Shown here: piece after piece, positions 8,264 to 46,380 of the stretch
Layout of the letters: every line of letters starts with the position of its first letter
Position numbering within the stretch: the first letter of the stretch is position 1
From: Octopus vulgaris
Lineage: Eukaryota
Assembly (NCBI GenBank): GCA_951406725.2
Contig: OX597815.1
Coordinates: 28,768,001 to 28,832,000 of the forward strand
DNA length: 64,000 nucleotides
Direction: 5' to 3'
Notes under the pieces: generated by a model
What the model was told of the DNA's origin: nothing
Database searches by the model: none
What the model saw: only the letters and a program-made list of their open reading frames with translations
Made by a program: the position numbers and the translations under genes

Positions 8264-8626
8264 AATATATTATTGATATATATTTTACTCATTTCAAGAG
8301 GAGGTTAACGAGGGAAACCTATACTAGGGCGATCTACCTACCTTTAAAGCAGTTAAATATCTTAAAGCACTCTATAGTGTTCTAGTAAATGAAGGACACA
8401 GAACACATGTGATTATAAGTTCTCGAGATAAAGGTTGAAATAGACAAAACAATAGCTAGCGGATGAAAGACAAATTAATCCAAGTAGGATATAAACTAAC
8501 ATTGTAAAGAAGCACAACGAAATACACCGATATATTTTGACATATTTTGTACAGTTCTACATTTAAGAGATGAGGAATTATGTACATTATTTACATTTGC
8601 GGGTATTTCTCCCCATCTTGTTTGTT

Positions 8627-8672
8627 AACACAACATTTCGGCTGATATACCCTCCAGCCTTCTTCAGGTGTC
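8627..8672 (-). ncRNA. minimal type-I hammerhead ribozyme
   Basis: Reverse complement: GACAC-CTGAAGA-a-GGCTG gagggtatat CAGCC-GAAA-TG-TT-GTGTT. Confidence 0.75.
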
Positions 8673-8733
8673 TTGGAGAAATTTCGAACCTGGGTTCTCA
8701 TTCCTAAGGTATTTTTCGATGTTGTTGCTGTTG

Positions 8734-8798
<65 letters not shown>

Positions 8799-8933
8799 GT
8801 TATTATTATTATTCAGGTCGAGTAAAGCGACAACTGGTTCGTTAAACGTGATCTGAATAATAAAAAATAATAATAATAATAACATTGAAAAATACCTTAG
8901 GAATAAGAACCCAGGTTCGAAATTTCCCCTAAC

Positions 8934-8977
8934 ACACCTGATGAAGGCTGGAGGGTATATCAGCCGAAACGTTGTGT
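8934..8977 (+). ncRNA. minimal type-I hammerhead ribozyme
   Basis: ACAC-CTGATGA-a-GGCTG gagggtatat CAGCC-GAAA-CG-TT-GTGT. Canonical core, palindromic stem III AACGTT. Confidence 0.85.
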
Positions 8978-9229
8978 TAACAACAAACAAGATGAGGACA
9001 AATATCCGTCAAATGTAAATAATGTAAATAATGTATATATTTTGTAATACGATATATATTATGTACACGCACAAACGAAACGCAGTATTTCAGTCCAAAC
9101 GGATTAAAGTGCCTCGGTGTGTTTTGTTCAACAGTTTCTGCCAATCAACCATAATAAATAATAATTTAATAATATATAATCCTGTTTGAAAATGGCCAAA
9201 ATTGAATAGAAACCCGCTTCATAAGCGTT

Positions 9230-15966: not shown

Positions 15967-16711
15967 ATAACAACATTAGCCAATACACGGTGATTGCTTA
16001 TAAGCTTTATGCTTATAAAATATTATTATTACTTACAGAACTGTAAATTCCGCACTTCTTTTCAAAAATATCACAGAAAAAATACAGAACTTGTTTATAC
16101 ACACACACATGTATGTATGTATGTATGTATGTATGTATGTATGTATGTATGTATGTATGTATGTATGTATGTATGTATGTATGTATGTTTGTATGTATGT
16201 ATGTATGTATGTATGTATGTGTGTATGTATGTACGATCGTTTTAGCGTGAGACTCGTGACAGGACAAGAATTTAAGTCAAAATATCATATTTTTTGCCGT
16301 ATATTGCGTACACGTTTACTCTCCCGTTAATAAACCTGAGATAGCACGTGCGCGTTCATGCGTATATGCATGTAAATATGAATAAATACATGTATATTTT
16401 TGTATATCTGTACACACACACACATACATATCTTTTGTTGTCTGTAGAGTCCGAGAAAGATGGTGCTGCAATTTTTTGATGAACAATCTGCACAGATGAG
16501 TTGTTTATAGTGATGAAAATGTCCGCGTTGTGCATTAACTTGGCTCCGCAATCAAATTAGTTGCCGCAGTGAGCGCAAAGCAACGTGCGATGAAGTGGTT
16601 TGCTCAAGAACACAACGCACCATTCGGTTCCCAAATCGAACTCACTGTCTCATGATCATGTGTGCAACACCCTAACCACTAGGCCACGCCTCCTCTCATC
16701 TGTACACATAA

Positions 16712-16801
<90 letters not shown>

Positions 16802-17185
16802 GGGTATCTGAGAGATACCACCAGGCTGAAATAGCAGTCAAATCCCTGACCCTAAAGCCACATTAAATGTTCATATAGCGCTAGGAGAGAGACCTGTTAG
16901 GCGGGCAATTTAAGCTGGTTTTGTACATACGTGCATATACATGTATGTATGAGCGTTCGTATATGTAAGTATAACGTATGTTCTGTATTTATTACGTTCG
17001 CTAATTTCCTGTAAATATCGGTACTTCGTTGTGCCATATATTTACTTCTATGTATAATTTTCCCTCTCGTATTGCATTACTATTTTTATTGAAACTTCTT
17101 CACTGTTCTCGTTCTGTCAGCGTTTTGGCGTTTCAGTCGAGTGTATTGGCATTAATGTGGCAACATCTGAAATGTTGTCGGGTAT

Positions 17186-17258
17186 ATGTTGGCTGATGAA
17201 GATAAATCAAGTATATGTGTGCAGACATATCTTGAAAAATCTGAAGCCGGTCCCACAT
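17186..17258 (+). ncRNA. type-I hammerhead with long stem II
   Basis: ATGtTGG-CTGATGA-[AGAT..TCAAG..ATATGT/ACATAT..CTTGA..ATCT]-GAAG-CCGG-TC-CCACAT. A15.1 is replaced by G. Confidence 0.7.
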
Positions 17259-17394
17259 TATCCCTTTCTAGGTATTTCATCTTTCAGATGTTCTCCCTGG
17301 AGGTAAGACAATTTTTTTCAAGTTTGTTGCACACAGGCATTTTTGCTAGTACATACGCGGTGAAGCTATACATTAGCGTCGTATTTATGTGCTA

Positions 17395-17469
17395 TCTGGT
17401 ATATTCAACAGACGAAGGCAGAGCTTCTCTTATGCAAAGTCAGAAATCCAGGATCTTGAATTATCCAGA
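17395..17469 (+). ncRNA. second hammerhead-like motif (U4A)
   Basis: TCTGGtatATTCAA-CAGACGA-..-GAAA-TCCaGGA-TC-TTGAATtatCCAGA. Long stem I, near-palindromic stem III, weak stem II. Confidence 0.55.
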
Positions 17470-17695
17470 AAAATCTTTTTTGATAGTTATATTTTGTCTC
17501 TCTGTCTACTCTCCGAGCGCTATATGAACATTTAATGTGGCTTTAGGGTCAGGGTTTTGGCTGCTATTTCAGCATGGTGGTATCTCCCAGATACCCTAAT
17601 TTATAGTTTTAAATAATTATTACCTTTGTATGGTATTTATTCCGATGTTGACCACTTGATAAGATCGATATTTAAATATCGATATTATCCTTATT

Positions 17696-17764
<69 letters not shown>

Positions 17765-17808
17765 ATTTATGCATCTAAGCGTTTATATATGTGCATATAC
17801 GTATATAT

Positions 17809-18038
17809 ATTTCTTTACTACCCACAAGGGGCTAAACACATAGAGGACTAACAAGGACAGACAAACAGATTAAGTTGATTACATCGACCCCAGTGCGTAA
17901 CTGGTACTTAATTTATCGACCCCGGAAGGATGAAAGGCAAAGTCGACCTCGGCGGAATTTGAACTCGGAACGTAACGGCAGACGAAATACGGCAACGCAT
18001 TTCGCCCGGCGTGCTAACGTTTCTACCAGCTCGCTGCC
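17809..18038 (-). mobile_element. SINE family 1, full length
   Basis: Consensus match. TSD ATACGTATATAT. Confidence 0.9.
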
Positions 18039-35399: not shown

Positions 35400-35892
<493 letters not shown>

Positions 35893-36133
35893 TATACAGG
35901 GTTTGTCGTGCCCGGAGTCCCACTTTGATAGAAATAAGCATTCTTGACTGCTATTTCTATTTTTTCGGTATGCGGTCAAGCAACCTGTTGCCTGTCCCTT
36001 TTTCTTATATGCAATATATATACTGAACTTTACAGAAGTTCCTGCCGGTAATCGGCTATATTTACATACCGAATTCTACCAGTAAATAATTGTGGTTTTT
36101 TTAAAAACCTTTATAGAAATTATTTACTCTTAT

Positions 36134-36523: not shown

Positions 36524-38580
36524 CTAGCTGAATGGCCCGGCGTTGCCCGGGTTACTGCTGTTCTTATTCAGATTAGTAAACAATAAATATAAAGATATAT
36601 TCTCATAATTATTTGGAAATATCTATATTTTATAAAAAACAAATCCAAATTGTAATGATAAAAAAAATTCGAACTGAAAATTTGTCAATGTTGAAACACC
36701 TCAAGGTAAACAATATTCATTGAGTAATTTTTTTGTTGGTGTCGAATAAATTGTTGTTGCTTCCAACTCGCGAGCATCAACATAGAGTTGGCCGTGGGAG
36801 AAGCATGTAGTAGAGAGATCAAGTGCAACTATCCTGAGATTTGTTAATTGAAATACCAAAACTTAGTTTGAATGGAAGCTGAAGCGTCTTAAATTCAACT
36901 GGAATATCTGTAGGTATGAGAGGAATTTTTAGAATAAAGACATTTTCTCCTTTGTGACTACCTGTTATAATTGTTACTTGTAGGACATGGGGCTTCACGG
37001 AAGTAATAATTAAGCGACATGCGTTACACAGGTGAGCACCCATAATAGGAGCACCCAGTTTTAGTGTCATGTTATGCAGTGGCATCCCAGTGGGTTTAAG
37101 TGTGTTGAGAAATTCAACAGAGTATTGACAACCTGATGTCGATCGACTGTTGTCAATTGATCGAAAAGACATTCCTGATGTATCTGTTAACGTTTGAAGA
37201 AATTCATGATTGAGTTTATCTACCATTTCATTAGTTGAAGCTAGTATAGCTCTTTCACATAGCATGTTTACATCAGTATAATTGACAGATAAATTAGGAA
37301 ATACTTTATCCATAAGATACTTAAAAGAAAGTATCATTTGGCCACATGCAATTTCATGTAGCTGAAGTCTTGAGTTGAGTGCAAATATCCCATTACCAAT
37401 CTTAAGAAGCTCATATGATCACCTTGAAGAAGTACTCTCATATCGCTTGTAAGATGATGTTTTTTCACGTCTCCAAAGGTACGATTTTTTGAAGCATGCA
37501 TTGATCTCATTAACTTTTGACGAAAATGTCCTGCACGAAGAACCGTTACTCCTCCCGTGAGCGTGCTATTGTTTTTTATGTCTTAAAGGGTGCGGTCAAA
37601 TACCTCTGGAGCTCCACGATGTAACATAGTGCACTCATGCCAAACAATGAAACAAGTTTGTTGAAGAACTGTTGCCATTGTAGAGATTTTGGAAATGTGC
37701 ACATCTGAGATTCTTTCATTGCAATGTTTAGAGGGAGCTTGAACATGGAATGAGCAATTCTTTTCTCCATTGAGGAGGGTAGCTGCAATATCAGAAGATG
37801 CAACACTGGAAGAAGGTTAGATTTTATTTCCTCCCATTTAGGATTGCAGGTGAAAGTAGCAAAAAGATCTGGTTTTCCATATGTCCTGACACATGTCCTA
37901 GCATCTTGTGTTTGTTCATGCAGATATCAAGGACCACCTGTGAATGATGATGGAAGGATTATATGTTGCCCCATGTTTTGAATATCACCATCATCATCCT
38001 CAGAGCATCTTGGAGATGAACATAATTTTTAGCCCTTAACTTTTTTTTGATTGTTACAAATGTAGAGGAGGTGCTGACTCTCAACTTTAGCATACATATC
38101 AACCAGGTATTGCCGAAACAGATCACGATACATGTGTAATTGATTTGATTGTTCTGGTCTTAACATCAGTTGGTAAGAATAGAAGTCATTCAACGACATC
38201 TCTTTGTTTGTAATTGGCTTTGTTGTTGCAGGTTCAATCTGTGAAATATTGAATTGATATCCACCTTGTCTATTCCACAAGATAAGAGGATTCTGGAGAG
38301 CATCATAAAAGAGATGAGTCTCTGAAACACGTTTAAGGTTGTTATCTCGAGCGGAGACCCCCTTCCGTCACGAATGACCATGGGTTTGCACCTAGAAAGT
38401 TACCCTCCCAGTCGCCCATGCATACCAGCCTCCTCTCTCCACGCCACCGATGTTATCCAAGGGAAAGAATTATCTCGAGCAAGAATAAGAATATCACGAT
38501 TTTCATGGGGATCACCTACCATTAGGATGGCTACTTCATTAGATGTGGGTTCATTAAAACGGTGTAAAATGTCCTTTACT
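36524..38580 (-). mobile_element. Helitron, internally deleted, pseudogenised Rep/PIF1-helicase
   Basis: 3' end hairpin CCCGGGCAACGCCGGG plus CTAG|T. Helicase peptides ERAILASTNEMVD..EFLNTLKPTGMP..LKLGAPIM..QLPFKLSFGISINKSQ. Rep peptides FNEPTSNEVA..RDI, QYLVDMYAKVE and TFTCNPKW. Confidence 0.95.
38353..38469 (-). mobile_element. 117-bp retroposed fragment inserted in Helitron Rep
   Basis: 11-bp TSD TTATCTCGAGC (38342-38352, 38470-38480). Removing it restores RDILILARDNNLKRVSETHLFYDALQNPL. Confidence 0.85.
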
Positions 38581-41500: not shown

Positions 41501-42019
41501 CGGAGTTAAACGCAGAAGTTATTCAAATCTTTATACTTCCGACTTATGCTTCGAGGAAAACATTGATATTATTCCGGAGGGAATAAAATGTCAAGCAAAG
41601 CAATCATCACGTCAGGAGAAAAAAGAGAAACAAAACACATCAATAAGCCATTTTAGCTGAATGTGATTACCGCGTAAATGATGAAGGGGAACGCTGGCAA
41701 GTTACTTTTTAAAAACCATTAATAGATTTAACGTCAAAGGCAATTTAAAGGAAGTGAAGAAAGAAATTAACAAAAAATTAAGAGTGGAGAAATATAGTGG
41801 GATAGATGAATAGGAATAAAGCTTAAAAGCGTGGAAATAGATATATGTAGTGGAAATGAAATGCAAGGAGACAGTTAAAGGTCAATTTTAAACATCAATG
41901 GAGTTTTATATCGTTATGATTGTCTACTCTACCTTCAAAATGTTTCTAATCAAAAATTACAAGGGGTTAAAAATAGGTTGGTTAAATTTTTCTGAAACAT
42001 TGTTTTCGATGATGATATA

Positions 42020-42535
42020 ACTAAAGCCAACTTTTTGGATATTACCCTTAACTTATATAATGGTTCATATTTCTCATACCATAAACCCTCAACTAATTTA
42101 AAATATATTAGCTCTTTCAGTAATCACTCTAAGGCTATTACAAGGAATTTAGTTAGGAATATTTCACTTAGACTTTCTAGATTATCTGCTAATGTTGATA
42201 TCATCAACGATAAAGCTGAATTTTATAACTCTGCCTTACTTAAAGCAGGCTATAAAGAAAAAATGCCTATTGACATTAATTCTACCTCTATTAATCAGGA
42301 CATGAAAACACGTCATAACGGTAATAACAATATAAATTTTATTTCGAATAACAAGACTAAATCGAAAAATGTAATTTTGCAGCGTAAGTGAGATAACCGT
42401 TCTTTAATTCCCTTTTTACGTTGTAAAAGTAAATCTAGGACCTTTAACGATAATTACCCTAATGACAAGGTATGTCCTAGTAAAAGTGTTTGGTTGATAA
42501 CTCCATATGGTGAGCAGATCAAATCCAACTTCCTT
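42020..42535 (+). pseudogene. Penelope-like element RT C-terminal remnant
   Basis: NFLDITLNLYNGSYFSYHKP..KYISSFSNHS..I..NISLRLSRLS..YNSALLKAGY, later VWLITPYGEQIKSN. Matches the PLE pattern FLD..Y.KP..Y+..SNHP..RLS..Y..AL..GY..WFNPPY. Confidence 0.85.
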
Positions 42536-46204: not shown

Positions 46205-46211
<7 letters not shown>

Positions 46212-46380
46212 TAAAATTTTGGGTATCTAAGAGATACCACGTTGAAAATAGCAGTCAAAACCTGTCTCTAAAACCACATTAAATGTTCATAATTATTACC
46301 TTTGAAGGTTTTTATTCCCATGCTGGCCACTTGATAGGATCGATATTTAAATTAACGATCTTATCCTTATTTATATAAAT
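46205..46380 (+). mobile_element. internally deleted relative of the 16793 element, inside (TA)n
   Basis: Left arm (GGGTATCTAAGAGATACCAC..CCACATTAAATGTTCATA) is fused directly to the tail (ATAATTATTACCTTTG..CCACTTGATA..TTATCCTTATTT). Confidence 0.8.

Follow-up and report, generated by a model that had tools for sequence, protein, structure and literature searches.

The 64-kb window, by which we mean the whole stretch of DNA analysed in this study, is AT-rich, microsatellite-laden animal DNA with many repeats, among them an abundant 240-bp SINE-like repeat that we take to resemble an octopus one. Runs of (TA)6 or longer make up 2.6% of the window, no tRNA genes were found in its 64 kb, and a bacterial promoter scan, a method not apt for animal DNA, stayed at chance level. 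Near 17 kb lies an AT-rich element (GC 0.36 across 16001-18000) that carries two hammerhead ribozyme (HHR) motifs on one strand, arranged as follows, together with a second copy further along the window:

16715..16795, no strand assigned: (TA)n run left of the element, its likely target, read from the sequence
16796..16893, plus strand: left arm, an inverted copy of 17504-17602 (93/99 identical)
16921..16991, plus strand: degenerate TA/GTAT microsatellite-like spacer
16992..17385, plus strand: module U, 394 nt here (contig joints, insertion, folding)
17180..17264, plus strand: HHR1, type I (descriptor, pair tables, family letters)
17253..17455, plus strand: piece between the predicted cut sites, 203 nt
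17396..17468, plus strand: HHR2, type I (descriptor, pair tables, family letters)
17504..17602, plus strand: right arm, the sense copy of the repeated 3' region
17603..17696, plus strand: 3' extension of 94 nt, at one end only, followed by (TA)n
46208..46376, plus strand: second, short copy, between (TA)n runs

The left arm starts with a 7-bp hairpin (16803-16819), the interior between the two arms measures 610 nt, and in the 3' extension a palindrome of 32 nt (17658-17689) lies some 7 nt short of the element end. The spacer at 16921-16991 weakly resembles the module's 3' end together with the bases that follow (~17348-17404; score 29, reached by 19/2000 shuffles). In contigs of the same family from public runs, the right arm is contiguous both with HHR2 and with the 3' extension (among the 32 of 5377 pieces listed). 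The name 'foldback element', given in the first-pass annotation, holds in so far as a 99-bp inverted repeat is present, but it is descriptive only, as the right arm stops 94 nt short of the element end. The short copy consists of about 80 nt of left arm fused directly to the 3' extension (84% and 89% identity, respectively), and its arm carries the family letter at five of the six arm positions covered; it had been described, as a copy at 46205, as having lost the whole interior, which is indeed gone, but the right arm has gone with it. The longest stop-free frame of the element (118 aa) has no Pfam match at cut-off, and a reading frame for reverse transcriptase (RT) plus GIY-YIG is absent from the element, which is thereby non-coding and, with a GC content below the 50% limit, in keeping with a non-LTR retrozyme.

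Several other features of the window were recorded alongside. At 35433-35896 lies a perfectly abutting 232-nt inverted repeat, (TA)n-rich and 96% complementary, possibly an assembly artefact. Broken Helitron-type Rep/helicase remnants (Pif1_2B_dom, Helitron_like_N) occupy 36822-38367 on the minus strand. PF26215 HTH_animal occurs in 22-81% of the members of the Atlas clusters nearest to the frame at 41996-42388 on the plus strand, with a recognition value below threshold; a protein homologue search with this frame found nothing, and we presume from its appearance that it is a Penelope-type RT remnant.

In HHR1, helix I starts at 17186, the core occupies 17193-17199, and a GAAG at 17243-46 (A15.1G) leads into a palindromic CCGG and a UC at 17251-52, with the cut predicted after 17252. 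Its helix I comprises 6 bp with a bulge, a UAU/UAU loop and a distal GG/CC; helix II comprises 4 bp, an A-rich 3x3 loop and a long hairpin; helix III is palindromic. In HHR2, distal helix I starts at 17396, the core lies at 17409-15 (U4A at 17410), and a GAAA at 17443-46 is followed by an odd palindrome (17446-54) and a UC at 17454-55, with the cut predicted after 17455; its loops are built as in HHR1, its helix II has 3 bp plus an A.A, and its helix III has 3 bp and a 3-nt loop. Both motifs show the helix sizes of canonical metazoan type I hammerheads (a 6-bp helix I with a loop, a helix II of about 4 bp and a short palindromic helix III), which the minimal hammerheads of Penelope-like elements (PLEs) do not, as far as the available text of PMC4209133 goes.

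A type I descriptor that allows one core change and requires a helix III insert of at least 4 nt, written after the motifs had been inspected, gave exactly two matches on both strands of the 64 kb (17193 and 17409) and not one on dinucleotide shuffles of the 610-nt interior (0/1500). The descriptor and the sequence thus bear out the initial report of two HHR-like motifs on the same strand about 200 nt apart, and the palindromic stem III and the single core deviation ascribed to each (A15.1G; U4A) can be read directly in the letters. Because of the required insert, the descriptor misses minimal hammerheads with a 2-nt helix III, whose cores lie at 8938 on the plus and 8667 on the minus strand; these sit on opposite strands of an inverted Penelope-type repeat pair around an (ATT)n tract (8577-9032), a family different from that of the element. 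No Rfam hammerhead match appeared among the 12 matches for the element region (E up to 10, with this mutated copy as the sequence scanned) or among the 150 of 213 window matches listed; the matches seen, microsatellite-driven miRNA and weak snoRNA/sRNA only, were rejected.

Searches further afield gave little of relevance to the element. A pattern for the architecture shared by the two HHRs had 0 matches in metagenome and viral contigs. The arm motif matched 66 metagenome, 5 prokaryote-genome and 0 viral loci; the 25 best-scoring of these 71 match only the 24-25-nt motif and were rejected as unrelated, since no likeness extends beyond it. A prokaryotic family among these loci (L001-L071, for example L067 4971-5387; Actinomycetota bins among others) carries a 23-25-nt hairpin motif, often repeated, inside or beside small frames that look replication-related; we take the likeness to be a chance match.

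A plain local alignment of HHR1 and HHR2 is not significant (164/2000 shuffles reach its score). Compared in structural register, 17 of the 18 non-core helix-flank and loop positions, chosen after inspection, match (binomial p 4e-9), which contradicts the initial description of the two motifs as unrelated in sequence. Common to both are the six helix I pairs with the UAU/UAU loop and the GG/CC beyond, an extra A after the core and the A-rich 3x3 loop above helix II. The sole mismatch of the 18 falls at 17205, where HHR2's letter accounts for 77% and 41% of the depth in two DNA runs, and the helix I pairs differ between the motifs at four of six places, all of which still pair. From these patterns in the letters we infer that HHR1 and HHR2 are paralogues that diverged under selection for function.

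Parts of the family are present in 20 of the 24 public runs listed, spanning 10 studies and 4 organism labels, and none of the runs listed with it is recorded as RNA. Contigs of 4 of the 24 were aligned to 16894-17700 at 80% likeness, with 2452 and 2456 contigs matched in two DNA runs (X1 and X2) and 103 and 287 in two further runs (X9 and X13) whose 'RNA' label is a guess; the data are contigs, and the variant letters are those of the 40 listed among 107 variant entries. Position 17246, the site of A15.1G, reads A in 21987/26978 of the depth in X1 (81%), 48219/53729 in X2 (90%), 42/48 in X9 (87%) and 421/594 in X13 (71%). Position 17410, the site of U4A, reads T in 11991/12077 (X1) and 6464/6542 (X2), 99% each, with one contig in X9; in X13 the canonical U4 accounts for only about half of the depth (84/167). 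The family majority in both DNA runs therefore carries the conserved core (CUGANGA, GAAA, UH). Whether the family consensus would show canonical cores and retain the stems was the check proposed with the initial reading, and it comes out in favour of the ribozymes: in the DNA runs the family has the canonical letter at each deviant site, and contigs and folding indicate that the stems are kept. Together these make it very likely, as judged from sequence, that the hammerheads are real and that this copy has decayed, both deviations being products of that decay. Such core changes would be expected to cripple hammerhead cleavage, and the present copy, with one in each motif, is probably inactive.

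Variation elsewhere in the motifs is of the same kind. Helix III of HHR1 occurs in 4-nt and 8-nt forms, both palindromes. The T.T mismatch at 17425/17433 is repaired either way, by T>A at 17425 in 31%/56% of DNA depth or by T>A at 17433 in 41%/25% (the phase of the two is not seen), and at 17440 a G.U becomes G-C in 49% and 70% in the DNA runs. Family letters raise the mean pair probability of HHR2 from 0.53 to 0.82-0.83. The variation of the family appears to respect structure, with signs of selection on it.

What changes in copy number between members of the family is the module around HHR1. At this locus the module is a single unit; in other copies it is absent, single or joined end-to-start, and no whole array was seen in the contigs. 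Six of the 15 joints listed (of 25) skip 388-408 nt, from 16982-16992 to 17381-17400 (X1, X2 and X13). Back joints from 17385/17386 to 17004 occur in X2 (depth 299) and X1 (depth 92), one contig per run, and run through about 12 letters that match the module start; matching loose ends are found in three X13 contigs. Some copies carry a 28-29-nt insertion at 17065, which brings the module to about 420 nt. An 8-bp direct repeat bounds the module (16985-92 and 17381-88), and this motif, contained in 16966-16996 and 17369-17388, recurs in the 3' extension within 17614-17644; 16966-96 and 17614-44 are alike over 31 nt, and one contig joins 17616 to 16965. Splice-like signals are possible inside the module (17283-17310), with an acceptor-like AG before an ATG and a donor-like GT about 15 nt on.

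Folded as a circle, the module is predicted to reach -108.2 kcal/mol (z -5.2, 100 shuffles) with 65% of its bases paired, a z beyond those of 13/13 control windows (range -3.1 to +3.1; 15 shuffles each); its minus strand also folds well (z -3.8), and a circle of the host lacking the module folds weakly (z -1.8). Removal of HHR1 gives a circle with z -6.7, compared with only -2.7 and -2.2 for the separate halves; the fold signal stems from the two flanks of HHR1 pairing with each other and from the module's two ends doing likewise. Eight common family letters, drawn from the 40 listed of 107 variant entries and including one (17120) at only 45% in X2, cost the module +1.0 kcal/mol, compared with +11.0 +/- 4.3 for random placement (0/150), and, of the four family letters at paired positions, one (17321) disrupts a predicted pair. 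Within the predicted circle, helix I of HHR1 forms at 0.48 and helix II at 0.97, so that the monomer is predicted, as for retrozymes, to be highly self-paired with its HHR free to form. The commoner helix III of HHR1 is 1 bp with a palindromic tetraloop, similar to that of an axolotl HHR described, in the available part of PMC7229834, as needing dimers. The predicted helix III duplex of HHR1 with itself (-8.3 kcal/mol) is far stronger than that with HHR2 (-2.9 kcal/mol), which suggests that tandem modules, and not HHR2, would activate HHR1. The likely circle, on these models, is the 394-nt module around HHR1 and not the 203-nt piece.

HHR2 belongs to the fixed 3' part of the element, with some contigs reaching from ~17400 across the right arm and others continuing from that arm to the extension (among the 32 of 5377 pieces listed). 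In full-length folds the probability of its helices is about 0; they appear only when the transcript ends at 17475 (0.74-0.76), and in longer RNA the motif is predicted to be blocked by a downstream hairpin. This modelled restriction to a short transcript would mean either gating or a count against function.

The two predicted cut sites, 17252 and 17455, do enclose 203 nt (17253-17455), as the first-pass annotation had calculated. Its further suggestion, that cleavage at both would release an RNA able to circularise, is weakened: the piece folds no better than shuffles (z -0.85 circular, 100 shuffles; -1.48 linear), the pair tables give the ligated junction a mismatched helix I, and copy number varies in the 394-nt module instead. 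Two further pairings were rejected, as a hybrid helix I closing the piece has a predicted probability of 0 and a heterodimer of the HHR1 and HHR2 helix III strands is predicted to be weak. Neither a joint from 17455 to 17253 nor common molecule ends occurred among the 15 of 25 joints and 12 further joint entries listed; contigs drop rare forms, so the missing joint is no evidence either way.

Comparisons with published systems, made here and below, concern the available parts of the sources cited. Non-LTR retrozymes are defined by tandem 150-450-bp units and self-paired circles (PMC7229834). The element is like those of animals (coral, mussel, axolotl; PMC7229834; bioRxiv 10.64898/2026.07.22.740005) in being non-coding, AT-rich and present in very many copies, and also in its canonical type I HHR with a short palindromic helix III and its ~400-nt unit with a predicted self-paired circle, which single contigs of two DNA runs show joined head-to-tail. 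Whereas animal non-LTR retrozymes are plain tandem repeats with one kind of HHR, an optional module sits here in a second HHR-bearing host that has an inverted head and a tail. Furthermore, loop 2 of both HHRs is an internal loop (3x3) beneath an extended helix II, unlike in the retrozymes described. Terminons (PMC6431247, PMC7761336) likewise bear several HHRs per retroelement, but they are giant, coding and telomere-attached, with minimal PLE-type HHRs. No description of a nested two-HHR element of this kind was found in the open literature available, as judged from listings and a few passages.

We lean towards reading the element as a PLE-moved composite non-LTR retrozyme with two related type I HHRs. 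Whatever goes further than the anatomy of the DNA and the variation within the family is prediction or inference. In tandem modules, one HHR1 site after another would be cleaved, with the predicted dimers of HHR1 assisting, and the cut modules would be sealed by an RtcB-type ligase of the host into self-paired circles of ~400 nt. HHR2 is predicted to cut the host transcript only during its synthesis, and the 203-nt piece would be a by-product at most. Self-cut RNA would then likely be copied by reverse transcription and integrated at (TA)n by Penelope-like elements; the left arm would correspond to the inverted, 5'-truncated copy, and the extension to the tail that a Penelope-type insertion bears on one side. 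That ribozyme function seems to have been kept argues for an RNA step in movement.

PLE insertion is marked by an inverted 5' copy, a one-sided tail and a (TA)n bias (PMC8557442). The element has an inverted 5'-truncated copy at its 5' end and a (TA)n target, in which 2/2 window copies sit, and thereby shares with the (TA)n-targeting Neptune, Hydra and Naiad PLEs (PMC8557442, PMC4209133) the inverted 3'-region copy at the 5' end, the extension at one end, the (TA)n flanks and an HHR near the 3' end. It differs from them in having no RT/endonuclease frame, in the full loops of its HHRs and in a tail of ~94 nt against the 30-40 bp described for PLEs (PMC8557442), and the likeness seen is one of anatomy. 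Inside the 3' extension, the match of two listed contigs breaks off at 17626-17632. At five positions both arms carry the same minority letter against the family majority; the 46205 arm covers three of these positions and shows the family letter there. This is expected if one arm was copied from the other, although a subfamily would look alike. In four joints, each known from a single contig, differing 3' pieces, direct or inverted, precede 16894-16920, and this clustering may partly reflect the edge of the aligned stretch.

The main rival, if an unlikely one, is a different carrier altogether: a non-autonomous Helentron frame of the HINE/DINE-1 type, spread by DNA rolling circle, which captured a retrozyme as its central repeat so that the ribozymes merely ride along. 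HINE/DINE-1 Helentrons with central tandem repeats, in the available descriptions (PMC4067079, PMC7492417), have a 5' hairpin, a microsatellite-like spacer, a variable central unit, a subterminal inverted repeat and a 3' palindrome, each with its counterpart here in the left-arm hairpin, the (degenerate) microsatellite-like stretch before a central unit in 0, 1 or more copies, the asymmetric inverted repeats and the palindrome ~7 nt from the end. Both window copies also begin at the same left boundary, and the window holds the Helitron-type Rep/helicase remnants at 36.8-38.4 kb, with no link to the element seen. The proportions fit less well, as the inverted repeat is 99 bp long and ends 94 nt from the element end where subterminal repeats are defined as 11-15 bp with the 3' one 38-60 bp from the end; the 3' part as a whole is longer, the flanks are (TA)n and not clearly TT, and ribozymes go unmentioned in the available text of these descriptions. 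Among the 15 of 25 joints listed, the head-to-tail ones reach 16894-16898, not the outer left end. The fixed-part HHR2 keeps its core and its pairing across subfamilies, which DNA-only movement would not be expected to select. We regard as less probable again the proposal that HHR2, arm and extension derive from an autonomous Penelope-like element, as its 3' end (pseudo-LTR) truncated here on the 5' side, and that the retrozyme module with HHR1 inserted itself there. It would account for the inverted head, the tail and the (TA)n, and family contigs (three records, with 14 loose ends at 17490 in X2) do have 17490 onward in common and long, unlike sequence upstream of it, but those contigs diverge downstream of HHR2 and so are without it. 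Nor do the ribozymes suit such an origin, for metazoan PLE HHRs are mostly minimal, as in the 8667/8938 pair, and those of the element have a 6-bp helix I and full loops; coding remnants, too, are missing from the element.

That two different ribozymes are kept together to excise the 203-nt RNA, which is then ligated into a circle unable to re-cut, strikes us as very improbable. In its favour, the family has mostly canonical cores in both motifs, which share a strand, folding of HHR2 is predicted for nascent 17253-17475, and double cleavage is chemically plausible; yet the piece shows no more structure than chance would give, no pairing of its ends is predicted, the helix III of HHR1 is not expected from the models to find a partner in HHR2, and the unit of copy number is not this piece, with HHR1 itself optional in the family. 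Least credible of all is the acquisition of hammerhead DNA by an element with terminal inverted repeats, be it a cut-and-paste MITE/Foldback or one of DIRS type. Although the 99-bp inverted repeat invites this idea and a TA target duplication could be hidden inside the (TA)n, the repeats are not terminal, 94 nt following the right arm here and in family contigs, and in the second copy the extension is present though the right arm is not. DIRS1-like elements have an internal region complementary to their outer ends, and no interior region of this kind was found in the element (best local scores 18-22).

In sum, the initial reading was right about the ribozymes and probably wrong in its choice of RNA circle. 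As to the autonomous mover of animal retrozymes, the arguments are still those of co-occurrence and similarity of pseudo-LTRs, in the available text of the sources (PMC7229834; PMC7761336; bioRxiv 10.64898/2026.07.22.740005). With its defined ends, its inverted head and its tail, the present family allows this question to be put to the test in a single genome assembly. The natural pair of diverged hammerheads with identical loops is, in addition, useful for mapping a putative, unusual contact between loop 1 and loop 2. More tentatively, we raise the possibility that a circle-forming HHR1 module parasitises a host element with its own paralogous, co-transcriptionally gated ribozyme, in which it would nest, increase in number and be lost again, the host being either a second retrozyme with Penelope-type ends or of Helentron type. 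If this were true with a Helentron-type host, ribozyme RNA circles would have gained a second, DNA-based route of spreading.
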